In this document: positions 1-27,592 of the stretch, piece by piece
Numbering within the stretch: position 1 is the stretch's first letter
How the letters are laid out: the number at the start of each line of letters is the position of its first letter
IMG/VR virus record: IMGVR_UViG_2522572164_000008
Reading direction: 5' to 3' (one strand)
DNA from: a virus
Taxonomy: Duplodnaviria; Heunggongvirae; Uroviricota; Caudoviricetes
Length of the DNA stretch: 27,592 nucleotides
Position numbers and translations under genes: made by a program
Notes under the pieces: generated by a model
The model's database searches: none
What the model was told of the DNA's origin: nothing
What the model saw: only the letters and a program-made list of their open reading frames with translations

Positions 1-153
1 ATGAAAAACATTGCAGCTATCAAACGTAATAACCGCAAGATTCACGCTCGTAAGTTCCTGTCTACGCCAGAAGGAAAAGCCTGGCTAGAGCGTAAACAGC
101 GAGAGAACGAAGAAAGAAAACTCCTTAGTGAGTTGAAATGGCTTAAGGATTGA
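1..153 (+). CDS. Possible small basic protein (50 aa) or 3' end of a gene truncated by the window start
   Basis: Open frame from position 1 ATG to TGA at 151-153 (MKNIAAIKRNNRKIHARKFLSTPEGKAWLERKQRENEERKLLSELKWLKD). Below the 60-aa cutoff of the ORF track; no upstream context visible. Confidence 0.2.
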   Translation: MKNIAAIKRNNRKIHARKFLSTPEGKAWLERKQRENEERKLLSELKWLKD

Positions 154-219
154 ACCACCAGTAGGCGCATAACACATCCAGCGATCAAAGATGTGTTTAT
201 GCACCTGATAGTGAAATTA

Positions 220-378
220 TTAAAGTCGTTTAGTTAACATCGCCATTGCTTGAGCAATAATTGCAACAGCGTCCATCTCTTCACTGGAAGCGATGCAAAT
301 GCGGTAACTAATAGCCACAACGAATACATCAATAACGAGAAAGTGAATAGTGTGAAGATGTTTTGAAAGTAAATGCAT
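220..378 (-). CDS. Unannotated 52-aa ORF with hydrophobic N-terminal half
   Basis: Minus-strand ATG at 378 preceded by GGAGG 5 nt upstream; translation MHLLSKHLHTIHFLVIDVFVVAISYRICIASSEEMDAVAIIAQAMAMLTKRL, stop at 220-222. Missing from the ORF track only because it is under 60 aa. Confidence 0.35.
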   Translation of the reverse strand: MHLLSKHLHTIHFLVIDVFVVAISYRICIASSEEMDAVAIIAQAMAMLTKRL

Positions 379-718
379 AACTTCCTCCGGTTTTACGATA
401 GGAAGATTAGAACATGCATTAAATGATGTTACAAGGGTGGTAATTTACCCTAATAGTCTACTATTCACCTCAATCTACGTCAACCAATATTTGATGTAGA
501 TTTAATTTTCTTTTAAAAACAATGTGTTGCAATTTGTTGAATTTTGGGGTTAGGTTGTTTTTTGAACGTTTTCATCAAGTGTAAAGATACGTTTAGCCTT
601 CATAGTGAGTTCAGTTACTGTCTTTTTCTCTGAAATCGGCGCAGACGTGATCAATGTTTAACGCGAAGATCAGCGGCGTCAGGTCCACGCAGCGACAATT
701 CTCAAATATCAGGAGGCA

Positions 719-1270
719 TTACGCTTCCTGCTCTTTCTTGATACGTTGCACCGTCTGTGTGCTGACACTGAAATCTTTTGCTACGCTCCGAATTGATCCA
801 CCATTCGCGAGAGCGGCAACAATTCCCGCTCGATCAATTGCTTTTCCATTACCACGTTTTGCTATACGTCCAGCGGCCTTAGCTGCGGCGATCCCCTCAC
901 GCTGCCGCTCAAGCATCATTTCACGTTCCATTTGTGCCACTGCTGCAAGCACTGTGAGCATCATATTCCCTGCGGGAGAGTTCTTCCCTGTCTTAAAGTC
1001 TTCTTTATGGAAATGCACAGACACGCCGCGCTCTGTTAATTGCTCAACCGTTGCCAGAAGGTCGGCTGTATTACGACAAAGGCGATCAATACTATGGACG
1101 TGTAACACGTCACCCTCCCGCACATAGTTCATCATTGCCTCAAACTGTGGGCGCTGAGTGTTCTTGCCTGACGCTTTATCTTCAAAGACTTTATCAAGAG
1201 TTACTCCAGCTAATTGACGGTCTGTGTTTTGTTGCACAGTCGATACCCTAATGTATCCAATATTAGCCAT
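719..1270 (-). CDS. Serine recombinase, resolvase/invertase family
   Basis: N-terminal GYIRVSTVQQNTDRQ catalytic-serine motif and C-terminal HTH (SIRSVAKDFSVSTQTVQRI), about 183 aa. Start taken as the second ATG (MANIGY), which has AAGGA 8 nt upstream; ORF-track start is 1276. Confidence 0.85.
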   Translation of the reverse strand: MANIGYIRVSTVQQNTDRQLAGVTLDKVFEDKASGKNTQRPQFEAMMNYVREGDVLHVHSIDRLCRNTADLLATVEQLTERGVSVHFHKEDFKTGKNSPAGNMMLTVLAAVAQMEREMMLERQREGIAAAKAAGRIAKRGNGKAIDRAGIVAALANGGSIRSVAKDFSVSTQTVQRIKKEQEA

Positions 1271-1835
1271 TTTCATTTTCCTTCTGTGTTGATTTGAGTG
1301 TAGTGATTATTGATCGTGTTGATTAGGTGTGTAAAGGACTTTTTTCACTACGAAATTCGAAGGTTTTTAGTGTGGTGATTTAGCCTGCTTTATCACTACA
1401 CGTCTTGCATGAGAATCATGTAGTTACATTTTGGTAAAATTAGCAAGCTATTAAATAGTGTGTTTATTTTGAAAAAATAATTTTTTGTTGCATTAAAGGA
1501 AACTTGTTCGACAAATAATAGATTGATTTTTAATCAACAATTTCTGATAGTGCTCTGTAAGCCGTATTACACAAGGCTTTGCGAAAGTGATGTAAAAGTG
1601 AAGAAAGCTAACATTGCACTTTTTAAGCTACTTTTCATTGGATTTTTACGTAGGAATTACACAGGGATTAATCATCAATTACATTGAATTTAAGCCTGTT
1701 TTAGATGTTTAATTTTGGTAGCAAGAAACACTTTTAGAAGATCATTGCACAGATGCTATGTGATGATTGGATGTAACGGTAGGTCACTGTGAGCTACCCC
1801 TATCAAGTCTGATACCCGATAAGTATAAATAACAC

Positions 1836-1934
1836 CTGGGAAATGAGTTCCGATCTATTTAGGAAATAACCGTGGAAGTGGTTTCCTACCTACCTAGGAA
1901 ATGAGTTCCTATCACCTAGGAAATGATTTCCGAC
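1836..1934. repeat. Three copies of a 13-bp dyad GGAAATGA(G/T)TTCC plus one split copy, next to a roughly 90% AT stretch (1935-2000)
   Basis: Copies read at 1836-1855, 1895-1913 and 1917-1934; split inverted half-sites at 1861-1889. Iteron-like or operator-like architecture. Confidence 0.6.
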
Positions 1935-2944
1935 AATACTATAATTAAACTACAATTAAACTATATAATATAATTCTTTTTTATCTTTATAAGAATAATT
2001 ATAGGGATACCCGTTAGGGAGTCTAACGACTATCCCTTAATCTATTGGCATTCGCCAGAACCTTGCACAAGTTAGAGTGTTAGTCGTTAGACTGCTTGTC
2101 ATAACACATAGTTTTTGTTTGTTGATGTTAGTTAGTAGATCTATGTTCGCTAATGCCGCTCACAACGAATATGTAATCTACTATGTGCAAATAGCCTACG
2201 GCTTGCGTAAGGCTAAATAGTCTTGCGCTGTGCGCTTCAATAGTTCCATTGATGAGGCTTACGCCAATCTAACGATCATCAATCTATTTAAGAGAAAATC
2301 TATTGTGCAATACTCTGACGAGTGCAATAACCTTGTGTGCTACGCGTTAGCGATGTTAGCACATAGACACAGACAACAACCAACAACAAACAAAAAAGAA
2401 AGAATGGTTTTAGTAGTTGAAGGTTAAATAAGTTTCTACCGCTTAAATCAAGCCGTAGGCGAGCTAAACGTATATAAGGCAGGGAAACCTTAGCGGTAAT
2501 AGATTAGCTCATTATAGAGCTTCTGAGGAGCTTTACAGGTATTTTATAAGGTGTCTGAAATTAGAGTTTATCTATCATCTCCTTTTCATATACCTAACAA
2601 ATACAAAATAAGCCCCTTAAATAAACCTCTGGCGAGCTAAACTGTCATTACATAAGGGAATGTATTGTTTTTATCAAAACCTCGTTAGAACGCGTTTTAG
2701 AGAATAAGGAAGAATAGCATCACACAGAAGAGCACGAATTGCTAAGCAAAATCATAACATACTGAAAAATGATCAATATTTTATGGGCGGGGTTGACAAA
2801 AGCCTTTAGTTATGGTAAAGTAATATTAGGGGCAGGAAAACATTCCTATCCTCTAAATAATTAAACCAATGCACCGCACTTTGAAGCCCAAGAGGCTTGC
2901 AAGGTGTCTTTTTCTTTTAACCAAATAGAATAGGAGGTTAATTA

Positions 2945-3127
2945 GTGAAGTATTTCACTTCTCAAGATGTAGTTGAAGCCTGGAAACGTGGTGAGATCAA
3001 CCGCTTTAGGGTAAGAATGAATAGGAACACAGCGCGACGCTGTGGTTATCCAGAGCGTGAAAAATGTTTTGACGATGCACTAAAAATTATTGATGAACTG
3101 CGTAAGGCAGGAGCAGAGAAAGAATAA
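2945..3127 (+). CDS. Hypothetical small protein (60 aa)
   Basis: GTG start with AGGAGG 7 nt upstream; first gene of a tightly packed same-strand array. Confidence 0.5.
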   Translation: MKYFTSQDVVEAWKRGEINRFRVRMNRNTARRCGYPEREKCFDDALKIIDELRKAGAEKE

Positions 3128-3150
3128 TAACAGGAGAAGGAGAAAACCAA

Positions 3151-3339
3151 ATGAATATTAATTTTGATTCTGCAACTTATAACGCGTTGTTAAATCGTGC
3201 AAAGGCAGAAGGGAAATCAATTCCAAAACTTGTTAATGAATTACTAATTACAGTCCTTACAAAGGAGGAACTAAATGATCAAAAATATCAAAACAATTGC
3301 CGAAGCGAAAGCCAAATGTCTAAATCAGAAAGATGGTAA
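3151..3339 (+). CDS. Putative ribbon-helix-helix (CopG/Arc-like) DNA-binding protein
   Basis: N-terminal strand-helix-turn-helix pattern (INFDSATYNALLNRAKAEGKSIPKLVNELL); GGAGAAGGAG upstream. Family call by pattern only. Confidence 0.45.
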   Translation: MNINFDSATYNALLNRAKAEGKSIPKLVNELLITVLTKEELNDQKYQNNCRSESQMSKSERW

Positions 3340-3943
3340 ACAAAAATATGTAGTCGTTGAGCAGTGGTTGAAGATGTTTAAAAAGTGGTTCTCACCGTCA
3401 GGTAATGAATACACCGCTACACTGCCAGCCGTTGAAATCTATAGCTATATAGCTGGATTCAATGAACAAGGGCAAGAATGTTACGCCACTCAAAAAACAT
3501 TATCTAATATTGGAATGGTTAGTGATCGCCAGGTTCGCAATATTATAAATATGTTTGTTGATATGGGAGTTCTTTCTGTAGAGGCTCGGGACGGGCAAAC
3601 ATCACTCTATAAAGCATTACCATTCACAGATGCACATATTACTCCCCCTGGAGAGTCATCACTACCTGATCCTTCTGAGAAAGAAGACGAATCTAATGAA
3701 ATATTGAATGTTTCCGAAATCATCGTTGAAGAAGAAACACAAGAGCCAGAGTTCCCTGAGCGGCCCGAAATTTTTACTTGGCTTCTTTCCCTTGATAAGA
3801 AGAAACCACCGCACGAAGAAACAGAAGATTTTGTAAAACGAGCATTAGATTCAAAGAATATCTATCTTTGTGAAAATGATTTTGACTCTTTGATAATTGA
3901 TCTCAAAAGTGAGAGCACAATATATGATTCACTACCCTTCTAA
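3275..3943 (+). CDS. Winged-helix/HTH protein with acidic C-terminal tail (222 aa), regulator or initiator-like
   Basis: AAGGAGG 6 nt upstream of ATG; HTH-like segment YATQKTLSNIGMVSDRQVRNIINMFVDMGVLSVE; C-terminal half rich in E/D/P. Overlaps the preceding ORF by 65 nt. Confidence 0.6.
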   Translation: MIKNIKTIAEAKAKCLNQKDGKQKYVVVEQWLKMFKKWFSPSGNEYTATLPAVEIYSYIAGFNEQGQECYATQKTLSNIGMVSDRQVRNIINMFVDMGVLSVEARDGQTSLYKALPFTDAHITPPGESSLPDPSEKEDESNEILNVSEIIVEEETQEPEFPERPEIFTWLLSLDKKKPPHEETEDFVKRALDSKNIYLCENDFDSLIIDLKSESTIYDSLPF

Positions 3944-3952
3944 GGAGAATAA

Positions 3953-4222
3953 ATGACTTATAACATCACTATAGGAAACAAAACTATTGAAATAACTGAA
4001 AGCGGATACAACATTTTAAAAGCTATTTTGGACATAGAGTTTTCACCACCGACAGTGGTTAGCTTTTGTAGTTTAGGCGGCTACAGCGCACAACACGTAA
4101 ATCATTGGTTAAATCATTTTACATCGTTCGGTGTGCTGGATTATGAAGGGATTAACAGCACTACATTTCGTCTTTTGAAATTAAACAAAGATTTTGAATT
4201 GTTTCTCACAAACAATCAATAA
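3953..4222 (+). CDS. Hypothetical protein (89 aa)
   Basis: Strong RBS (TAAGGAGAATAA-ATG); same-strand operon context. Confidence 0.5.
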   Translation: MTYNITIGNKTIEITESGYNILKAILDIEFSPPTVVSFCSLGGYSAQHVNHWLNHFTSFGVLDYEGINSTTFRLLKLNKDFELFLTNNQ

Positions 4223-4319
4223 CAACAGATCGGGCAATACATATGGCAAATGCATTTATGGCGATATTCATCGTAACAATGGCGTCCAGTTTTTATAATC
4301 CACATAAAAAGAGGGAAAA

Positions 4320-4703
4320 ATGGGAAGAAAGAAAAAGAACAACTTAAAACGTATTGAAAAAAACAGTAATTTCAATTCAAAAAGACAACGTCCACCGACA
4401 CACACCAATAACGAAATTCCAGGGGAAGAGATAATCTTTATTCTTGAAACAGAATCCCCTGAATTAAGTGATGAAGAATTAGAAATAATCCAATCAATGC
4501 CAGGCGTTTACTTTCGCCCAAGAACAAGAAAACAAACTATCATTTCTGATGGCACTCTGAAACGTTGGCAGCTTTTAGGGTTTAGCTCCTATCATCATTT
4601 TTTGGGATTTAACGCTTTCAATAATTGTGTAGGTGGTGCATCGGAAGTCGATCTGATGGCTCATTTAGAAGATACATTAGCTTCTAACAAACGTTCTAAC
4701 TAA
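4320..4703 (+). CDS. Hypothetical protein (127 aa) with basic N-terminus and acidic centre
   Basis: RBS AGAGGGAAAA-ATG; N-terminus MGRKKKNNLKRIEKN. Confidence 0.5.
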   Translation: MGRKKKNNLKRIEKNSNFNSKRQRPPTHTNNEIPGEEIIFILETESPELSDEELEIIQSMPGVYFRPRTRKQTIISDGTLKRWQLLGFSSYHHFLGFNAFNNCVGGASEVDLMAHLEDTLASNKRSN

Positions 4704-4718
4704 TAAAATGATGGGTGT

Positions 4719-4964
4719 ATGTATAAGCGCCCAATGAAAATATTCAAAAAAGGAAAAATAATGATTGGCTATATTCAAGAAACACAATTATTTCAGATGA
4801 TCCTGTCTGATGCAAAAAACTATGCAGAGTTAATTCGGCTGGCAAAAGAAACAGAAGACTACGAAGCATTAGAGCGTTACCGTGATGAAGTGCTGACGCT
4901 CAAGACACCTTTTAACATCGTATTGAATATGATTAATGATGCATTACAAGGAGAATACGCATAA
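4719..4964 (+). CDS. Hypothetical small protein (start ambiguous, alternative ATG at 4761)
   Basis: Open frame with AGGAAA upstream of the internal ATG at 4761; stop overlaps the start of the next gene. Confidence 0.4.
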   Translation: MYKRPMKIFKKGKIMIGYIQETQLFQMILSDAKNYAELIRLAKETEDYEALERYRDEVLTLKTPFNIVLNMINDALQGEYA

Positions 4965-5263
4965 TGGAAGAAGATATTAGCAATGCAATGGAACAACTTT
5001 TAGATCTGACTATCTCACTACAAACAAGAATAAATCAAGCCTATTCAGATTTATGCGATTACACGCTCTCTCAATGCGTTATTAGCTTAATGAAGGTGAA
5101 TGTAAGCCTTGACGATTTTATCTCTCTGGTGAGCGTATCAGAGGACGATGCAAAACAGTGTAATCAAATCATCACAGACATCGCCACCACGTTAAAGGTT
5201 GCAAGTGAAGAGATTCAGCAATTAGTAGATGATTTAGCAAAAAGTGCTATTTTCTCTAAATGA
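4964..5263 (+). CDS. Hypothetical protein (99 aa)
   Basis: RBS AAGGAGAA upstream; ATG overlaps the previous stop (TAATGG), suggesting translational coupling. Confidence 0.5.
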   Translation: MEEDISNAMEQLLDLTISLQTRINQAYSDLCDYTLSQCVISLMKVNVSLDDFISLVSVSEDDAKQCNQIITDIATTLKVASEEIQQLVDDLAKSAIFSK

Positions 5264-6253
5264 TAATGAAAATTATTTGCATTTATAATGATTTTGTTAT
5301 ATAATAATTTAGGGGTAGATAAAAAGATTTTAGTTGGTGTTAATCCTTCTACTGTCATAAATCCCTGCATATGGAAGGTGATAGCCTCAAAGGTTGAGTG
5401 GCATTAACCTCTAACAAATATTACCTTCCATCTCTCAAGAAGTTTTAGAATAATCATAACTCCCTCTTTGATTGTTGATTGTTGATTGTTTCTACGTTGT
5501 GTTGATGAATGTTGTTAGGCATTGTGCTTAATTTTGATAAAAGCGGGTAGGTGTTATCTCCTTGCCCTTCCCGCTCTTATTTTTCATCTATGCTTATCCT
5601 AAAGCTCCTTATTTTGTCAGAAAACATTAAAGAGCCTTACACTGATAGTTATATTTTATAACTATTTACTAACATCATTAAACTATTATTTAATGACAGA
5701 AGTTAGTAACAGAATAATCTATTAAGTTGTTGTCAAAAACAATCATCTGCATAGCGTTAGCCGCAAGCAGAGAGAGTTTAGCTAAGAATGGTGCAATAAA
5801 CTTTGGAAATATTGATAGCAAAACGGGTTTTATAGAATGCGGATCTATAAGCTTTGGTTGTAAAAACGATTTTCTGAAACGGTAGATTACTGTTGGTGTA
5901 GTTAATCATTATTAAAAATTTAATCCGTGAGTAGATTGGAATAGTGATTCCTTAAAATCTGACTGGTGCATCCACACCATGAAAGATAGCGGTTGGCCAC
6001 CGCGCCCCGAATAGATATTCCTGATTGATTCCGCATGTTTTCCTAAGAGCATGTTTTCAGGAGTATCTATTCACCCTTTAAGCATATCATCAAGTATATT
6101 TAAAAAGTGTATTTGCTGATATGTTTAATCCTCTTATAGTTTAACTTATCAATTATGTAATTGCCCGCACGTTAAAGCCCCTTTGCTGGTCAGAATTAAC
6201 CTCTTACGGCATTGGGGCTTTTTATTTGTCTGGCACTAACAGGAACATTATTT

Positions 6254-6451
6254 ATGAAACAAGAAATGATTATCAGCAAAGACGGGGAAACGATGATTGT
6301 TAGTGATGAAAACCTCATTAAGGTTGCCGCACTGTTGGGAGTTACTCCCGAAAGTCTTCGTTCTACCACTGCTCAATTATTTAAATCGGCTGATGCGGTT
6401 AGTCTTGCTGATGCCCTTAAATCTAAAATTAAACAACTGAAAGGAAAATAA
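6254..6451 (+). CDS. Hypothetical small protein (about 65 aa)
   Basis: ATG at 6254 with AGGAA 8 nt upstream; the ORF-track start at 6212 lies inside a terminator-like hairpin and is unlikely. Confidence 0.45.
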   Translation: MKQEMIISKDGETMIVSDENLIKVAALLGVTPESLRSTTAQLFKSADAVSLADALKSKIKQLKGK

Positions 6452-6455
6452 TCTT

Positions 6456-6839
6456 ATGGCTAACCCATATGGAAAATTAAAAGCAGTGAATGCGGATAAC
6501 TCCCGTTCACGCTGTAAGGTAGTAGCTTACGCTGCTGATCCAGTGCTGCAAGATCGCCTCGTCAAACTGGCTTCACCTCTCACTGACGATCTTATTGTCG
6601 GGGCTTTGCTGAAAGCCGATGGCACCAAAGCAACAACCGCATCTGATATTGCTCACGTAGTAGTTGAACCGGCTTATGAAGGACAGGAAAGCGTAGTGGT
6701 TGCACATCCTACTTTCGTTATTCTGGCTGAAGATGGGATTGAATTTAACAGCATGGAAAAGGCAAGTGTTATTGCAAAACTGCAATCTCTCGGCTTTGTA
6801 ATTGCTGGTTATGAAGAACTTGCGATCCCTACGACTTAA
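6456..6839 (+). CDS. Hypothetical protein (127 aa)
   Basis: RBS AAAGGAAAA; starts 4 nt after the upstream gene and is followed 14 nt later by the next gene. Confidence 0.55.
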   Translation: MANPYGKLKAVNADNSRSRCKVVAYAADPVLQDRLVKLASPLTDDLIVGALLKADGTKATTASDIAHVVVEPAYEGQESVVVAHPTFVILAEDGIEFNSMEKASVIAKLQSLGFVIAGYEELAIPTT

Positions 6840-6853
6840 CAAGGAAAATAATA

Positions 6854-7885
6854 ATGAATGATTTATCAACATATTTTGGCGTTAATACTGCGGTAGTAAC
6901 TCCATTTGCTTATGAGAATGCACTTAATACCCTGATTACTAATCTCGATCTGTTCGATGTGCAATATCATACAGAAAACAGCATTCTTCTTACCGACCTG
7001 ATTGATCAGTTTGTGCAGGTAGCTGGGGAAACCTCGCCTTACGCTCAAAGCGACTGGAACGCCTCTAAACGTCAGGAATGGTCAAACAAACTTTTCCAGA
7101 TGAAACACGTCGGCAGTATTAACGCTGTTACTTCTCGTGACCTGGAACAATACAGCCGCCAATATCCAAACCGTTCTGATGCTATGCTGATAGCGGTTAA
7201 TGATTTCTCTGAGGCTCATTACCGTTCACACGCAAACCGTGTTGAAGTGGATCTGATTACCGCGCTGCTGGGCCTGAAAGTTGAATCTGAATATGCCGGA
7301 CAAGGTGATCTCGACTTCCTCGACGGTCAGGCTAAAACCACGGTACCCGCTATCGACTTTGCATCGACTACTGTTAACCCGTTCCTTGCTATTCGTAAAG
7401 CGGTGCGCTTACAGAGTGAAAAGCTGGGGTCTGGTCTTGCTGCAAAGCGAACTGGTGTAATTATCTTTGCTGCTGGCACTGCTGCTGATGGTTTGTCATC
7501 TAACCCGCTGATCAGTGACATGGTGAAATATGCAGGCGATGCGAGTGCTACGGCCCTGTTTACCCGTATGGTTGATTCTAACCCAGCCTATGACTCTTTC
7601 CAGATTGGTGGGATCACTGTTATTGATGTGTCAATGTTTCCTGAGATTGTTGCTCACATCGGAGAGAACGGTTTCGCAATTGTTCCGGTAATGGATAAAG
7701 CGGCACAGTGTTACCAGCTTCATAGCGGCGTTGGTGTGCGTCATGCTGAGTTAGGTCAAGATGCCGTGTTGCATCACCAATATCTAATCAAGGATGAATT
7801 CCAATTCCCATCTGTGGTTACTGAGACATCTTATCTGCCAGTAAACAACATTCCGCAAGCTATCATCTTCGGATCTGCTGCGTAA
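6854..7885 (+). CDS. Hypothetical protein (343 aa), no recognisable catalytic or nucleotide-binding motif
   Basis: RBS CAAGGAAAA; long ORF with protein-like composition; no Walker A seen. Confidence 0.65.
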   Translation: MNDLSTYFGVNTAVVTPFAYENALNTLITNLDLFDVQYHTENSILLTDLIDQFVQVAGETSPYAQSDWNASKRQEWSNKLFQMKHVGSINAVTSRDLEQYSRQYPNRSDAMLIAVNDFSEAHYRSHANRVEVDLITALLGLKVESEYAGQGDLDFLDGQAKTTVPAIDFASTTVNPFLAIRKAVRLQSEKLGSGLAAKRTGVIIFAAGTAADGLSSNPLISDMVKYAGDASATALFTRMVDSNPAYDSFQIGGITVIDVSMFPEIVAHIGENGFAIVPVMDKAAQCYQLHSGVGVRHAELGQDAVLHHQYLIKDEFQFPSVVTETSYLPVNNIPQAIIFGSAA

Positions 7886-8036
7886 TAAAGCGTTAATAGA
7901 CGATTCCCCATCGGGGCAATAAGGGTAAAGGGATTAACTAACCTGTAGGCGCAAATACAGTAACGAATCTCTTTGCCCTTTTTGTTTTTCTACTGTCTAC
8001 AAACCCAAATAAAAATATATATGTGAGAGAAAACCA

Positions 8037-8234
8037 ATGAATACAGAAAACCCACAATCCTTTATTCTTAAGGCTGTAAAAGAACTGGCAGCTATTAGCG
8101 AGGAATCAGTTATAAACACATCGGCGCTTTGCCGCCTTTTAGAAATTGATGCAAATAATGTGCGCCAGCGTGTCTTTCAGACTGGGTGCAGCACTTTCGA
8201 AGCAATTCAATACTATTGCTCTAAAAAACAATAA
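8037..8234 (+). CDS. Possible small HTH-like protein (65 aa)
   Basis: Weak RBS; segment TSALCRLLEIDANNVRQRV is HTH-like. Could be non-coding leader. Confidence 0.3.
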   Translation: MNTENPQSFILKAVKELAAISEESVINTSALCRLLEIDANNVRQRVFQTGCSTFEAIQYYCSKKQ

Positions 8235-8268
8235 TAAACAACAATCATAATACAGGGAAACAATTAGC

Positions 8269-10110
8269 ATGTTAGAACTTAACGTCAGCCGCTTATCAAA
8301 CGTTGTCACCTTCCAGGTTGATCGACCATCATTAGAGAAAGCAAAAGCAGAAGTAGAAAAACTTCGTAAACAAATGGCGGCGGTGAAAGATATAGAATTG
8401 CGTGTTAAGACACATAAACAATCAACTTCTAAAGCAAAAAAAGACGTAGACGATATTGCTAAAAAGCAAGCACAGGCAGATAAAGCCAATGCTAAAGCAC
8501 AATTAGCCGCTCAACGTGTAGTTGCAAGAGAACAAAAAGCCCTGGCAGCACGCAAAGAGAAGGCAGACTTAAAACTGTTAGACGTTGGATCAAGCATTAG
8601 TGCATTGCACCGCCTTTCTGTAGCGGAACAATATAAAGCTATTGCACAGGCTAGAGAAATTGCCCTCCAATATGAAAGAGGAGCTATTAGTCTGGCACGT
8701 ATGAATAGCCAAATGAAACGCCTACAACAGCAACAACGTAAGATTAATGGCAATCGTAACGCTCACGCTAAAGCCTATGCACCTGTTAAGGGTAGCGGGA
8801 GTATTGGCGGCGGTGCTGCGGCTGTTATGCTGGGTGGCTTAGGCGCTGGCGCTACGTATATGGCTATGAGCAAAGCCTCTGAATTTGTTACTAACAGCTT
8901 TGCGAATGCTGAAACGCTGGGTGAATTGTATAGCCGTGCGAAGCTGGGCGGTGTAGACGTTAACCAGATGAACAATATTGAGCAATGGGCCTACAAAAAC
9001 GGCGTTGATTCAATGATGGGGGATCAAGGTAAACGTAAGTATCTCGATCAGATGAAAGATGTGCGTGAGCGTGCAACCAAAAGCTATGATGAGGCTGAAT
9101 ATGTAGTCGATAAAAAAACAGGCAAAGGTGAATGGAAGGGCGGCGATAGCGGCATCAATACTTTAATGAATGAAGGATTCTTAACTAAAAAGGATCTAAA
9201 AGACTTTGCTGATAATCCGGCTGGTCTGGTTAGTAAAGCAGTTCAGGGAATGGTGAAGAAAGGCTATTCAGATGCACAAATCGGTAGTCGTCTGGAAGAT
9301 CTGGCTGATGATTTGATGCTCACCTCTAAATACTGGACACGCTCCGCTAAAGAAGTGGAACAATCAGCACGAGAACAACGAGAATCAGGGCGCTGGGTAA
9401 CACAGGCACAACAGGAAAGCGTTATTAAATTCCGTGAACTGAATAATGCACTTAGTGGGCTTTCTGACTCACAAGGGATCGCCTTTGTTGATGGCTTTAT
9501 GAAATCTCTTGATCCGAAAGTGATTGAAGAGTTTAAAAAGAGCATGGTTGCAATGCTGCCAATGTTTACCAAATTAGGCGAGGCTATCGGCGGATTGGTT
9601 AACGCCGTAATGAAAACAATCAACTGGCTGATGAAAAACGACGAGAAGACGGAAGCTATTCAGAAGAATTTAGGGGATGCACCGCCACTATCTAACGAAG
9701 GAATGAAGCAGAATCTTTCTAATCTCACTCCTGATCAATATAAAGGCGCTGGCACCGGAACAACTAAGCCAGATAACAGCAATTCCCTGGTTAACACTAT
9801 TAAAAGCTGGTTTATGCCAGAAGAAACGGTAGGTGGGGCGCAGGCTGTAAATCAATACAGTCTCGAAGGACAAAACATTGCAAATCTGAAACAGAGTGCA
9901 GCACAACAAGCTTTCAAGGCTCCTTCTTACACCTTTGCACCTGTTATTAACTTCAATCCAGAATTACAAGTAAATGCAGAAGTGCCGCTAACTATCGAAT
10001 CAGACACCGGACGATTGAGCGAATTTATCGACTTCAAATCAAAGGCATCCTCCGCTGAGTTTAGCAAGCTATTAACGCTGGGTGTTATGTCAGGCGGGTC
10101 AACCTATTAA
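8269..10110 (+). CDS. Large protein (613 aa) with Lys/Ala/Gln-rich N-terminal predicted coiled coil, a Gly/Ala-rich hydrophobic segment and a roughly 400-aa C-terminal domain
   Basis: RBS CAGGGAAACA; residues about 20-160 are K/A/Q/E-rich heptad-like; about 170-200 reads GSGSIGGGAAAVMLGGLGAGATYMAM. Confidence 0.7.
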   Translation: MLELNVSRLSNVVTFQVDRPSLEKAKAEVEKLRKQMAAVKDIELRVKTHKQSTSKAKKDVDDIAKKQAQADKANAKAQLAAQRVVAREQKALAARKEKADLKLLDVGSSISALHRLSVAEQYKAIAQAREIALQYERGAISLARMNSQMKRLQQQQRKINGNRNAHAKAYAPVKGSGSIGGGAAAVMLGGLGAGATYMAMSKASEFVTNSFANAETLGELYSRAKLGGVDVNQMNNIEQWAYKNGVDSMMGDQGKRKYLDQMKDVRERATKSYDEAEYVVDKKTGKGEWKGGDSGINTLMNEGFLTKKDLKDFADNPAGLVSKAVQGMVKKGYSDAQIGSRLEDLADDLMLTSKYWTRSAKEVEQSAREQRESGRWVTQAQQESVIKFRELNNALSGLSDSQGIAFVDGFMKSLDPKVIEEFKKSMVAMLPMFTKLGEAIGGLVNAVMKTINWLMKNDEKTEAIQKNLGDAPPLSNEGMKQNLSNLTPDQYKGAGTGTTKPDNSNSLVNTIKSWFMPEETVGGAQAVNQYSLEGQNIANLKQSAAQQAFKAPSYTFAPVINFNPELQVNAEVPLTIESDTGRLSEFIDFKSKASSAEFSKLLTLGVMSGGSTY

Positions 10111-10157
10111 TCATCACTGTGGGGCTGTTTAGCCCCCTTAAATAAGGATTACAAATT

Positions 10158-10835
10158 ATGGCAATGGGTCCGTTAACCATTGGTCGCCCGACTGAGGCGA
10201 AAATCAACAGCACAAGCAACGATAGCAACGGTAGAACAACCAAAGGGGGTAACGGCTTTGCGATCATTACCTCTAATCTCGGCAGTGGTGCAAATGCTGC
10301 TTACAATGACTACCAGGCATTATCATTTGATAGCGTGGAATCGACGAAAGTTAGCAGAAATGCGGACGTTACAAGCTATGCCGTCGAATCAGGATCAGAA
10401 GTTAGTGATCATGTTCAAATACGGAATAACAAGTTCACATTACAAGGGCGTATCTCTGAAACCGTATTGAAGCTCAATCCTGATATGATTAAGAATGCTG
10501 GAATTAACGGCAATCGACGTATGCTTATGCTTGAATACCTAAATCAGTTGATGGACAGTCGCCAACCTTTCCTACTTGTCACTGAGTTAAAAAATTATGA
10601 CAACGTTGTGTTAGTTGGCATGTCTTACGAAGAAGAAGCAAGCGAAAGCCTATTGTTTACTCTTGATTTTGAGCAAATCCGTCTTGTCTCTAAAGCAACT
10701 ACAAGCGCAATTGCGGTAAAAACAGCACCAAATAAATCTGTAGGAGGCCAGGTTAAAATGCAGGTAAATACAACAGAACAGAAAAATCAAAAAAGCCCAG
10801 GGCAAGACGTTGTAACGCCAGTATTTAAACAATAG
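10158..10835 (+). CDS. Hypothetical protein (225 aa)
   Basis: RBS TAAGGATTACAAATT-ATG; last gene of the same-strand array. Confidence 0.6.
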   Translation: MAMGPLTIGRPTEAKINSTSNDSNGRTTKGGNGFAIITSNLGSGANAAYNDYQALSFDSVESTKVSRNADVTSYAVESGSEVSDHVQIRNNKFTLQGRISETVLKLNPDMIKNAGINGNRRMLMLEYLNQLMDSRQPFLLVTELKNYDNVVLVGMSYEEEASESLLFTLDFEQIRLVSKATTSAIAVKTAPNKSVGGQVKMQVNTTEQKNQKSPGQDVVTPVFKQ

Positions 10836-10876
10836 CCTTAAACGCCTATGAAACGCTCTGTAACGAGATAATCATA

Positions 10877-10908
10877 AAAGAGGCATCAGTCTATATTGAA
10901 GCCTCTTT
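10877..10908. terminator. Putative bidirectional terminator between convergent genes
   Basis: AAAGAGGC ... GCCTCTTT 8-bp inverted repeat followed by T-rich sequence, between the 225-aa gene stop and the integrase stop. The loop is long (16 nt). Confidence 0.4.
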
Positions 10909-10915
10909 ATTACGT

Positions 10916-11820
10916 CTATAGCGTTGTTTTACGCCTTAAATTTGATTTTTTATTGATTGATAAGCCTTTCTCTATTTCAGGGTAGCGTAAAAGCTCAATA
11001 TATTTTTTAAGCTCTATTGGAGAAGCTGCATTTTTGCTATATGTGCGGAATGTTTCTGTATTGCCGCGTGTATGGCCCAGGAGAAGGGCGATCCTGTCTT
11101 CTGGAATTTGATTTCGATCAAGAAGCTGTGCTACTCCGTGTCTCAGAGAATGAAACACTTTCCTTTCTGTTCCCTTTTCCCCTAAAGCCTTTCGTTTAGC
11201 TCTTGTAAATCGTTGTGTATGCCACGTAGAGCGTTTACCGTCAGCACGTTCTGTAATGCTGGCGTGATAGAACAAAAAGCCATTGTGAGGCTTTTCACGC
11301 AGCGACAACACCAACGGAGTGATAAGGTTATGCACAGGCACAACACGTGCCGCAGCTTTCGTCTTTCCCTGTGTGATTTCAAAACACAGCACACCTTCGA
11401 TCTCTTTCACATCGTCTATTGTGAGACTTGCTATCTCATTGATCCGCATACCTGTATATAAACCGATAAGACACAAAGCCGTCATTTCTTTGTTTTCTGC
11501 TGAATTACCGGAAAATACTTGCAACACCTGCAATAGCTCTTTGTTAGAAAATGCCTCGTAGCTCTCTCTACTTTGTGCCACATCAAGCCTATGCCCTCGC
11601 CAGGGGGAGAGCGCCCTTTCTGGCGCATCGTGGTAACGTGATGAAGCTAATTCCCATAGCTGGGCCATTGGACTGATATAATTTGCAATTGATTGTTGTG
11701 AAAGAGTTTTTTGCATGTGTTCAATCCAGCCTGTAACAGTGGTGCGGCTTACATCTTGCAATGCAATATCAGGCTTTTTACGGTAGGAGAGAAACATCTC
11801 TACCGCTTTTCTTGCCTTAG
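10916..11820 (-). pseudogene. Tyrosine integrase, C-terminal catalytic fragment (separated from its N-terminus by IS5)
   Basis: Contains H-x-x-R (FHSLRHG), LLGH and a C-terminal Tyr (RTYSK) typical of tyrosine recombinases. The first 23 codons of the ORF-track protein are read from inside IS5. Confidence 0.8.
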
Positions 11821-13015
<1,195 letters not shown>

Positions 13016-15062: not shown

Positions 15063-15860
15063 ATGATTGATATTCATGCCGAATTAAACGAATACAAAAA
15101 AGATTTTATTTCTTTACGTGAATTTCTTGAGGTCGTGCTTAAGGTCGCTGGTGATGATTATGATGTTTCAGATGTCATAACTTGGATACTCAGGAGAATA
15201 AGCGGAGAACATATCCGCCTGTACACAGTAAATGAATTTAAGCTGTTGGAATCTTTTTGTAACCCGTATCGGGATGAATTTGATTATGATGTTCTTTATA
15301 GAAATCTGAATGCGGTTCGGAAACGTGGTTGTTTACCTGGTGAGAGGGATGAAAATGGTTTTCTGGTGTCCGGTTATTGGGAAGATCCCGAATTTGAGAA
15401 CATTGGATTTATAAGGGGTGAAATTTTCGCAATTTTTCCCGATGTCCTTGACGCGTTAACGAAGCTGGAAGGCGCTAACTCTTCTGAAAATGACGAGGCA
15501 CAAGGACGCGATATTGAAAAGAAAGAGTTGCGTACAGAGGATGATTTATTATCCCAAATCGCAATGCTGGAAAAAGAAAACGCAGAGTTAAGGGCAAGGA
15601 TAGAGCAGTTAGAGCAAGAGCGCCCGATACACTTATATAAATACTGGGATAAAGACCCATTAGCTAAGGCTATTGAGATTAGAAACAGAGAGTGGGCCAA
15701 TTACGATCCAGAAAATGATTTTGCCACTAGGGGAAATCAAGAAGCGATAACCAGGGAGCTTAAGCAGTGGGGGGCAAGTAATGCTCTTGCAACGCTCATA
15801 GAGAGGACTGCCTGCCCTATTAACCGAGACAACAGCCAAAAGAACGCAAAGCCGGATTAA
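15063..15860 (+). CDS. Hypothetical protein with predicted coiled-coil segment (about 265 aa)
   Basis: ATG at 15063 with GAGGTG 6 nt upstream; coiled-coil-like EDDLLSQIAMLEKENAELRARIEQLEQE. Sits between int and alpA. Confidence 0.6.
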   Translation: MIDIHAELNEYKKDFISLREFLEVVLKVAGDDYDVSDVITWILRRISGEHIRLYTVNEFKLLESFCNPYRDEFDYDVLYRNLNAVRKRGCLPGERDENGFLVSGYWEDPEFENIGFIRGEIFAIFPDVLDALTKLEGANSSENDEAQGRDIEKKELRTEDDLLSQIAMLEKENAELRARIEQLEQERPIHLYKYWDKDPLAKAIEIRNREWANYDPENDFATRGNQEAITRELKQWGASNALATLIERTACPINRDNSQKNAKPD

Positions 15861-15875
15861 CGCACCATACCGCAT

Positions 15876-15985
15876 ACCCTGAGGGTGATTTACTGTTACC
15901 CTGAGGGTATTTTTTTATCTTCCCCGTCAATTTTACCATCACCCTTAGGGTTAATTTCCTTCCGGTAACCATTAGGCCTGAGGGT
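15876..15985. promoter_or_regulatory. Array of ACCCT-N-AGGGT palindromes upstream of alpA
   Basis: Perfect copies at 15876-15886 and 15898-15908, variant ACCCTTAGGGT at 15941-15951, partial at 15977-15985. Confidence 0.5.
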
Positions 15986-16054
15986 ATGAAAATATTCGTT
16001 ATTTCTGTGCCATGATTACCTCGTCAAATTGAGTAGACGTTATGAGGTAAATAT

Positions 16055-16252
16055 ATGTCAAATACGCTTATTCGTTTAACAGAAGTTCAGCGTAGAACTG
16101 GATATAGCAAGGCATGGATTTATCGCCTTATGGGGCAAGGTAAATTTCCTGCATCAGTTAAAATTGGCTCGCGAGCTATTGCTTTCGTTGAGAGTGAAAT
16201 TGACGAGTGGATTAATCAGCGTATTGCTGAATCACGCGGAACAGCTACCTGA
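16055..16252 (+). CDS. alpA: AlpA-family phage transcriptional regulator/excisionase-like HTH protein (65 aa)
   Basis: Sequence LIRLTEVQRRTGYSKAWIYRLMGQGKFPASVKIGSRAIAFVESEIDEWI matches the AlpA family pattern; RBS GAGGTAAATAT-ATG. Confidence 0.85.
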   Translation: MSNTLIRLTEVQRRTGYSKAWIYRLMGQGKFPASVKIGSRAIAFVESEIDEWINQRIAESRGTAT

Positions 16253-26596: not shown

Positions 26597-27592
26597 ATGG
26601 ATACGAGAGTGGCGACGATAATCAAAAATATAGCAATCAAAGGTCTTTTTAAACGGAAGGACATTGATTGGAGTTTAAAAGATGTGAATGTTTTAGTGGG
26701 TAAAAATGGCTCAGGTAAGAGCACGATAATTCAAAGTGTTTTTGCCCTCTTAAAACAAGAATTAAATGAAAGTTTAAGTAATGCTGCGTTGGCTCAAATA
26801 ACATTGGCCAATGGAGGCACAATTACTCACAAAGTTAATTTTCGCGAAATTGACTCTGTCCAGCTTCTAAACCTACTTAATAACCTTAAGAAAAACAGTA
26901 TTAAAGGTAAATCAAAGGGTAAGGAAATAAAGGAGTTAAATGAACTTATTGAGTTGCTTGAATCGAAAAAAGAAGACACTGAAATTAAAGAGTTCGGGAT
27001 GGGAACTGTTAGCGTAAGTGATAATATTAAAAACACTAAGCGAATAAATGTTGAGTTAATATCAACTATCAATATGAGTGCCAATTCCATCTATGAATTC
27101 AAAAAAAGTGATGGTGAGCGCACCACAATTCTTGATATGGAAATTGCTGGTGAATTAGAAAGGTTAAAGAATACTTTCAAAGTAAGTGAGTCTAAAGGTA
27201 TTCTCATAAAGGATAAGTTGGAATCAGCTATAAATAATTTATTTTCTGAATGTAACAAAGTTGTTTCTTTTAGTAATGGTAACATTTCTATTAAGATGAG
27301 TGATTCTGGTGAAGATATTAGGTATAATCTTCTTTCATCAGGTGAACGTCAGTTGTTATATATTCTGATTAAAACAGCTAATACTTCATTGGATGAATCT
27401 GTCTTGTTGATGGATGAGCCAGAAATATCCTTGCACCTTACGTGGCAAGAAAGATTAATAAGCACCATCAAATCAATTAACGATAATTGTCAGTTAATTA
27501 TTGTTACTCATAGTCCTGCAATATTAATGAAAGGCTGGATGGATTCTTTCGTAGATATAAAAAATATTTCAAAGGAATCTTCTCATGACTGA
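26597..27592 (+). CDS. ABC-type/SMC-like ATPase (331 aa), defence-associated type
   Basis: Walker A GKNGSGKST, ABC signature LSSGERQ, Walker B LLMDEPE, H-loop IVTHSP; very AT-rich versus island backbone; TATAAT at 26573-26578 upstream. Confidence 0.85.
   Translation: MDTRVATIIKNIAIKGLFKRKDIDWSLKDVNVLVGKNGSGKSTIIQSVFALLKQELNESLSNAALAQITLANGGTITHKVNFREIDSVQLLNLLNNLKKNSIKGKSKGKEIKELNELIELLESKKEDTEIKEFGMGTVSVSDNIKNTKRINVELISTINMSANSIYEFKKSDGERTTILDMEIAGELERLKNTFKVSESKGILIKDKLESAINNLFSECNKVVSFSNGNISIKMSDSGEDIRYNLLSSGERQLLYILIKTANTSLDESVLLMDEPEISLHLTWQERLISTIKSINDNCQLIIVTHSPAILMKGWMDSFVDIKNISKESSHD
27585..27592 (+). CDS. Start of a translationally coupled downstream gene (truncated by the window end)
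   Basis: ATG at 27585 overlaps the ATPase stop (ATGACTGA) with AAGGAA 8 nt upstream; only 2.7 codons visible. Confidence 0.3.

Follow-up and report, generated by a model that had tools for sequence, protein, structure and literature searches.

The alpA gene of a chromosomal island in Escherichia coli O104:H4 is preceded by four copies of a short palindrome, and we describe here this array together with the open reading frame (ORF) immediately upstream of it, referred to as ORF-X. The island lies in a 27,592-nt stretch of DNA recorded as viral (Caudoviricetes; IMG/VR record IMGVR_UViG_2522572164_000008); this 27.6-kb stretch is called the window below and supplies all coordinates unless a locus is named. 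The palindrome gap spans 194 bp (15861-16054), from the ORF-X stop codon (15860) to the alpA ATG (16055). We judge it probable, at roughly 60%, that ORF-X and its dyad operators form one exchangeable cassette placed at the alpA core promoter, in which sites 1 and 2 double as a terminator. This reading draws on the conservation of the palindromes across genera, on their association with the C-terminal domain of ORF-X, and on the exchange of gene and array as a unit between otherwise similar islands.

Organization of the palindrome array

The original prediction had listed two perfect 11-bp palindromes 22 bp apart, one variant and one partial copy upstream of alpA. Reading of the sequence and a pattern search returned this same set (Table 1), and the variant copy, site 3, is itself a perfect 5+1+5 palindrome that departs from sites 1 and 2 at the free central base alone. 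Exact matches to ACCCTNAGGGT occur three times in the window, all of them in the gap, and were never found in 100 dinucleotide-preserving shuffles. With up to two mismatches allowed, eight matches were counted window-wide vs. 6.8 expected, so only the clustering of the copies is non-random: three exact and one degenerate copy are packed into 110 bp. The degenerate copy, site 4, adjoins the weak -35 position of the putative alpA promoter.

Table 1. Features of the region from int to alpA in the window.
Feature	Position	Strand	Description
Rfam int-alpA RNA motif RF02996	14979-15046	+	44.2 bits; between int and ORF-X
ORF-X	15063-15860	+	265 aa, WP_000565286.1, hypothetical protein; proposed binder of the sites
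Site 1:2 hairpin (sites 1 and 2 with flanks)	15874-15910; T7 at 15910-15916	+	15 bp with one G.G mismatch, 5-nt loop, -23.9 kcal/mol
Site 1	15876-15886		ACCCTGAGGGT; perfect dyad, 15 nt past the ORF-X stop codon; pattern search
Site 2	15898-15908		ACCCTGAGGGT; perfect dyad; 22 bp start-to-start from site 1, 11 bp between
Site 3	15941-15951		ACCCTTAGGGT; perfect 5+1+5 dyad inside the 33-bp unit 15933-15965
Site 4	15968-15985		degenerate/composite; GGCCTGAGGGT (2 mismatches) at 15975-15985 overlapping ACCATTAGGCC at 15968-15978
Putative extended -10 of the alpA promoter	16008-16016	+	TG-c-CATGAT; from alignment
Leader hairpin	16016-16050	+	arms 16016-16024 and 16042-16050; 3' arm holds the alpA Shine-Dalgarno sequence
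alpA	16055-16252	+	65 aa, Phage_AlpA/HTH_17

Sites 3 and 4 belong to a 33-bp unit and its degenerate copy (15966-15998), respectively. This unit, TTACCATCACCCTTAGGGTAGATTTCCTCC(C/A)GA, varies in number among E. coli strains and metagenomes: it is present once in the window, and in two or three perfect tandem copies elsewhere, as seen at positions 2654-2720 of locus L003 and 2654-2747 of locus L004. Each added unit contributes one more dyad and about three helical turns.

Conservation of the sites across lineages

For the comparative analyses 80 loci were gathered by AlpA similarity alone (68-87% identity) from contigs of one genome per species, and relatives from E. coli, metagenome and IMG/VR loci were added; the metagenome scan yielded mostly identical E. 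coli copies. Sites resembling ACCCTNAGGGT (up to two mismatches) recur in Pantoea, Symbiopectobacterium, Kluyvera, Klebsiella, Cedecea, Atlantibacter, Photorhabdus, Sodalis and several E. coli sublineages. Relative to the alpA ATG the site starts are nearly fixed in 14 diverged lineages, which represent about ten genera: they fall at -211, -179/180, -156/158, -112/114 and -78/80. Site 1 is kept at -179/-180 in ten or more lineages, and sites 2 and 3 at -156/-158 and -112/-114 across lineages. In an alignment of ten lineages the column identity was 0.91 within sites and 0.60 within spacers, and 82% over the promoter-proximal 62 nt. Isolated sites (-211, -113) are conserved as well as paired ones.

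The 15-bp consensus drawn from sixty sites, TTACCCTnAGGGTAA, leaves the centre free (A10, C16, G19, T15), the pattern expected if a dimer makes contact with two half-sites. Adjacent sites are spaced in clusters of 21-23, 31-34 and 43-44 bp, that is, about two, three and four helical turns, a description of loci that are related to each other. A Rayleigh test of spacing periodicity was used descriptively only, for the same reason and because R stayed high across a broad span of periods (10-11.5 bp). Taken as sequence evidence, these results support the view that the palindrome copies are conserved, operator-type sites beside the alpA promoter.

The motif follows the C-terminal domain of ORF-X

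Among the 80 loci fetched with AlpA, each one whose upstream ORF ends in ...(V/T)ACPI(K/N/V/E)R carries at least three sites (up to two mismatches), and none of the loci with other upstream ORFs does. At L019 the upstream ORF fell below the calling threshold, though coding for ...VACPIKR is visible, and two sites are present. The C-terminal 90 aa of ORF-X are 52% identical within the class vs. 9% between classes, and the N-termini are just 29% identical within the class; for AlpA the corresponding identities are 84% within and 78% between classes. The association of the motif with the ORF-X C-terminal domain is perfect, with the caveat that ORF-X and the array are physically adjacent. Distant members of the domain family also keep ACCC-type half-sites downstream: AACCCGACA(C/G)C occurs four times, in both orientations, at L143, and AGGGTGATAG/CTATCACCCT half-sites are found at L144. 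By comparison of these loci, the motif was shown to track ORF-X alone, the gene immediately upstream of the array.

The footprint across genera, the fixed offsets from the alpA ATG and the clustered spacings support the part of the original prediction that regarded the palindromes as operator sites for alpA. The binders it named, AlpA itself and a ribbon-helix-helix (RHH)-like protein, did not hold up. AlpA is 100% identical at L030, which has ACCCTNAGGGT, at L032, which has CTTCCA direct repeats, and at L029, which has a third type of repeat. The RHH-like YlcI/YnfO protein is likewise identical (WP_000201462.1) at loci with ACCCTNAGGGT (L003, L004) and at L005, where two ACCGCAATTGCGGT palindromes are found, also 22 bp apart.

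Products of the genes beyond alpA (AntA or a 144-aa gene) were considered as binders too and rejected, the downstream protein being 98-100% identical across repeat classes.

Properties of the ORF-X protein

No family in Pfam, PHROGs or NCBIfam matched ORF-X. Searched at full length, it returned only 31 clusters among 5.8 billion proteins. Its C-terminal domain returned only 57 representatives among 1.84 billion, always in C-terminal position and behind varied N-termini, and a word-indexed protein search with this domain alone added almost nothing. In the AlphaFold model an alpha/beta domain at the N-terminus is followed by a long helix (159-186) and by a helical domain at the C-terminus; the predicted local distance difference test (pLDDT) score is 73 at full length and 81 in the model of the C-terminal part. 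The helical C-terminal domain (about aa 186-257, ERPI...ACPI(K/N)R) is conserved, and the N-terminal domain is variable. The helix, a coiled coil at about aa 159-186, weakly resembles the dimeric leucine zippers of Max, USF and GCN4 (E ~0.05). A dimeric ORF-X held together by such a zipper would fit sites of dyad symmetry, and we infer from this fit and from the association described above that the protein may bind DNA.

Exchange of the cassette between islands

In pairwise DNA comparisons of islands that are otherwise 86-99% identical, homology breaks off just past int and returns 35-55 nt ahead of the alpA ATG. This break between int and alpA indicates that ORF-X and the array are exchanged as one cassette. 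Its left boundary is marked by the RF02996 RNA and its right boundary by the extended -10-like element.

A second cassette class carries direct (C/T)TTC(C/T)A repeats, three to seven in number (mostly five to seven), with starts at about -205, -175, -145, -114, -91 and -70. It was found at twelve loci (L007, L012, L013, L023, L032, L033, L036, L042, L043, L052, L070 and L072) and is paired with a different C-terminus of the upstream ORF, ...T(D/E)K(A/Q)(L/M)T.L(I/L)..AL...; at several of these loci the first repeat lies within a hairpin right after the ORF stop codon. Further cassettes, whose repeats likewise stand at equivalent positions, contain two copies of TTTTGCATGCA or two copies of GTAATATTAC, each pair 21 bp apart.

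The loci L029, L030, L032 and L035, from Enterobacter, Kluyvera, Lonsdalea and Atlantibacter, respectively, are a clear case of module shuffling as judged by sequence comparison: with identical AlpA and a downstream protein that is 98-100% identical, they hold three unrelated cassettes between int and alpA. L030 and L035 are both of the ACCCTNAGGGT type, yet have no nucleotide homology inside the cassette.

Sites 1 and 2 as a predicted RNA hairpin

Because directly repeated palindromes also make up an inverted repeat, pairing between sites 1 and 2 is possible. In the minimum-free-energy fold site 1 is paired with site 2 and site 3 with site 4 (z = -3.6). The 1:2 hairpin of the window has the features of an intrinsic terminator, namely a G+C-rich stem, a U-tract and a position downstream of a gene, 15 nt past the ORF-X stop; a consensus terminator scan flagged just two 5-bp sub-hairpins. 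An Rfam scan of the gap detected no known RNA family, the sole match being RAGATH-25 at 16 bits vs. a threshold of 49 bits.

Every lineage that has the site pair can form the 1:2 hairpin, at -18 to -29 kcal/mol. Among 14 distinct sequences the outer flank pairs alternate between UA, AU, CG and GC and the central pair between GC, AU, CG and GU, which is covariation outside the positions fixed by the motif. For the long hairpin, none of 500 shuffles and none of the slid controls reached the observed value in four of five covariation measures, the number of pair types among them; the same test applied to each site's own flanks found nothing. Complementarity of the central bases of sites 1 and 2, seen in 7 of 11 lineages vs. 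37.5% expected, is not decisive on its own and becomes convincing only together with the flank covariation. Quasi-palindrome template-switch mutation is a non-selective alternative source of such flank complementarity. The T-rich tail occurs only in the E. coli subgroup and is missing in Pantoea, Kluyvera, Symbiopectobacterium and others. From these patterns, the 1:2 stem-loop has probably been selected as well, and the hairpin of the window most likely terminates int/ORF-X transcripts.

The putative alpA promoter and leader

Some 40 nt ahead of the alpA ATG, all repeat classes have in common an element TG-n-(C/A/T)(A/G)(T/A)NAT. This extended -10-like element lacks a good -35 and was not called by a consensus promoter scan; its position and conservation suggest that in the window (16008-16016) it is the likely alpA core promoter. 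Transcription of alpA would then start near 16023, a position that would put the site centres at about -44, -78, -121 and -143.

The leader hairpin is kept at the equivalent position in every lineage (L005-L085) through compensatory stem changes, with the variants CCTCGT/ACGAGG, CTCCTGTAG/CTACAGGAG, TCTCCCGT/ACGGGAGA, CTCCTATAG/CTATAGGAG and CACCTCA/TGAGGTG. With a start at about 16023, the 5' arm (16016-16024) would be left untranscribed, so that the Shine-Dalgarno sequence would be sequestered only in read-through transcripts coming from upstream. We hypothesize that the leader hairpin is a second insulation device, which would block translation of read-through transcripts by analogy with the fold-back inhibition in IS10.

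Island context

The window matches E. coli O104:H4 at 100% identity, and the element studied here is its island at the tRNA-Thr gene thrW, an island of the Gram-negative phage-inducible chromosomal island (PICI) type. The gene order is int, the RF02996 motif, ORF-X, the palindrome gap, alpA, AntA/AntB and YlcI/YnfO (minus strand), followed by Icd-like, DUF4222, DUF927 primase, ProQ/FinO and PerC genes and by genes for an AAA ATPase and a DUF4435 protein. Such an organization has been described for Gram-negative PICIs (PMC10111431), and the characterised island EcCIMP1 sits at the same thrW site (PMC11773190). AlpA is the activator needed for PICI induction, and in EcCICFT073 and EcCIMP1 its own promoter is among its targets (PMC6092414; PMC11773190). 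According to published work, these islands are switched on by helper-dependent transcription of alpA; the helper acts through an unidentified factor, and the existence of a repressor is unclear (PMC6092414; PMC11773190).

The 3' end of RF02996 runs into the ribosome-binding site of ORF-X, which makes the RNA a leader of ORF-X here rather than of alpA. In strain 55989 the same element directly adjoins thrW. In O104:H4 a second element (1-12900, with 10916-12193 on the minus strand) lies between thrW and the island and carries a tyrosine recombinase of its own as well as a gene for a 'phage baseplate protein'; O104:H4 therefore carries a tandem insertion at this site. The distal end of the island (26597-27592 and beyond; 25109-27065 of L001) holds the AAA-family ATPase gene followed by the DUF4435 gene. 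We take this gene pair to resemble the PARIS anti-phage system.

Proposed model and alternatives

In the model that we favour, the four copies would constitute a dyad-symmetric operator array (TTACCCTnAGGGTAA) lying on roughly one face of the helix, with two, four and three turns between successive sites. An ORF-X dimer would bind them, making contact through the C-terminal 'ACPIKR' domain and dimerising through the preceding coiled coil. The cassette, inserted between the block of int and the int-alpA RNA and the alpA core promoter with its leader, would set the activity of the alpA promoter, and as alpA is the induction switch of Gram-negative PICIs, it would set island induction too. In this E. 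coli lineage, the RNA hairpin of sites 1 and 2 with its U7 tract would in addition end int/ORF-X transcription and insulate alpA from read-through. That ORF-X binds the sites and acts on the alpA promoter is our inference, as are the direction of that regulation and any link to helper-phage sensing. On biological grounds we slightly favour repression that is relieved by the helper phage; activation from the site near -44 would be equally compatible with the geometry.

A bolder version of the model is offered tentatively. ORF-X and the array might act as the still missing sensor of helper phages in one large class of Gram-negative PICIs and be a functional analogue of the staphylococcal Stl repressor. 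The C-terminal domain might represent a new DNA-binding fold and hold the alpA promoter off, the fast-swapping N-terminus might be targeted by a helper protein, a swap of the cassette might change helper specificity, and the terminator hairpin and the one sequestering the Shine-Dalgarno sequence might guard alpA against read-through.

The covariation of the 1:2 flanks and centre, with none in the sites' own flanks, together with the fold pairing 1:2 and 3:4, the stability of the hairpin wherever the site pair exists and the T7 tract of the window, could also be read as the work of RNA or DNA structure only: a 1:2 terminator or 3'-stabilising hairpin and a 3:4 leader hairpin, with no sequence-specific protein involved. 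We regard this as unlikely. A pure RNA reading is insufficient because each unit has a dyad of its own that the long hairpin does not need, because isolated sites are as well conserved as paired ones, and because the CTTCCA direct repeats, which are not palindromic, stand at equivalent positions and cannot pair. Moreover, most genera lack the U-tract, and template switching could account for the flank complementarity. It is also quite unlikely that the sites are targets of a helper-phage transcription factor inducing alpA, with cassettes tuned to different helpers and ORF-X a mere passenger. Such a factor would answer to the helper-dependent induction of alpA noted above, and the proximal site centred near -44 is activator-like, if the inferred promoter is right. 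However, no match and no helper-phage counterpart was found when the array and ORF-X were sought in phage and plasmid collections (50,697 phage records among them), and the double-site pattern matched only island copies or unrelated tandem repeats in IMG/VR. This explanation also fails to cover the link between the motif and the ORF-X C-terminal domain, which persists at identities as low as about 35% and extends to the related half-sites of distant members.

AlpA/Xis-family proteins often bind phased repeats, and this habit and the self-activation of AlpA in EcCICFT073 and EcCIMP1 would suit binding of the palindromes by AlpA, either for autoregulation or in an excisionase-type array. We consider this very improbable, given the identical AlpA behind three unrelated repeat types and the small difference in AlpA identity within and between classes; a site for AlpA would rather be expected within the promoter-proximal block, which all classes conserve. 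An array for an AlpA/Xis-type directionality factor was dropped for the same reason, and because 2.2 kb separate the array from the thrW attachment site. Repeated, phased sites are also typical of RHH operators, integrase arm sites and replication iterons, and some such other island function for the repeats appears just as improbable. Identical YlcI/YnfO proteins occur with different repeats. The integrases of the window and L005 are 99% identical, including the arm-binding domain, yet their repeats differ, and integrases of some loci sharing the motif are only 41-66% identical. The distance from thrW counts against arm-type sites as well, and for iterons the array is placed 3.5 kb upstream of the DUF927 primase gene, whereas the PICI origin is downstream of pri (PMC10111431), an argument from position, with the primase outside the covariation comparisons.

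Comparison with known systems

A search of the literature for the ORF-X family, the palindrome motif and the cassette structure of the PICI switch returned none of them. As a type of system, cis-encoded regulators with phased operators are well known. The cassette resembles immunity modules of the lambda cI/OR1-OR3 type in having several dyads about two turns apart beside the gene of a presumed dimeric binder and at the promoter of a master switch, and in that the module is swapped as a unit between similar elements, as imm regions are. It differs in that neither a helix-turn-helix (HTH) nor any known DNA-binding family was recognised in ORF-X, whose role as binder is presumed, and its gene lies co-directionally upstream rather than divergently; the array is also long (about 110 bp), with spacings of two, three and four turns and a variable copy number. 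With Stl, the master repressor of Staphylococcus aureus pathogenicity islands (SaPIs) and Gram-positive PICIs, and the stl-str region, the cassette would share a satellite-encoded, highly polymorphic and modular regulator guarding the switch, and the variable N-terminus of ORF-X could sense the helper. However, ORF-X has no similarity to Stl in sequence or fold, and in Gram-negative PICIs no repressor has been found, AlpA acting there as an activator (PMC6092414).

The alpA promoters of EcCICFT073 and EcCIMP1 belong to the same kind of island (int, alpA, an AntA/Bro zone, DUF927 primase, PerC), and the region upstream of alpA is the helper-responsive element there; those studies defined no cis sites. 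The AlpA allele of EcCIMP1 is a different one, the island lacks an ORF-X homologue and a comparable cassette, and other inverted repeats precede its alpA, so that it was not retained as direct experimental support. The Pseudomonas aeruginosa AlpA antiterminator has the protein name, the HTH type and a nearby terminator in common with the island system. Unlike the island array, it acts as one molecule that reads a single GGGACG between -35 and -10, with an N-terminal segment in the RNA exit channel and DNA-contact residues numbered to 142 (PMC9371919). Judged by its length of 65 aa, the island AlpA would be too short for such a segment plus an HTH, and the repeats do not track AlpA. Compared with Rho-independent terminators, the 1:2 hairpin shows the same G+C-rich 15-bp stem, 5-nt loop and U7 directly past the stop codon; it differs in that its arms are copies of a motif repeated twice more downstream and in that the U-tract is lineage-specific.

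Set beside these systems, the cassette offers concrete cis elements for the PICI switch, namely four dyads, a copy-variable 33-bp unit and a terminator hairpin, and a concrete trans candidate from a protein family of about 57 clusters that lacks annotation. Together they form an exchangeable module with many alternative versions, and this suggests how islands that carry defence systems and virulence regulators may diversify their helper specificity.
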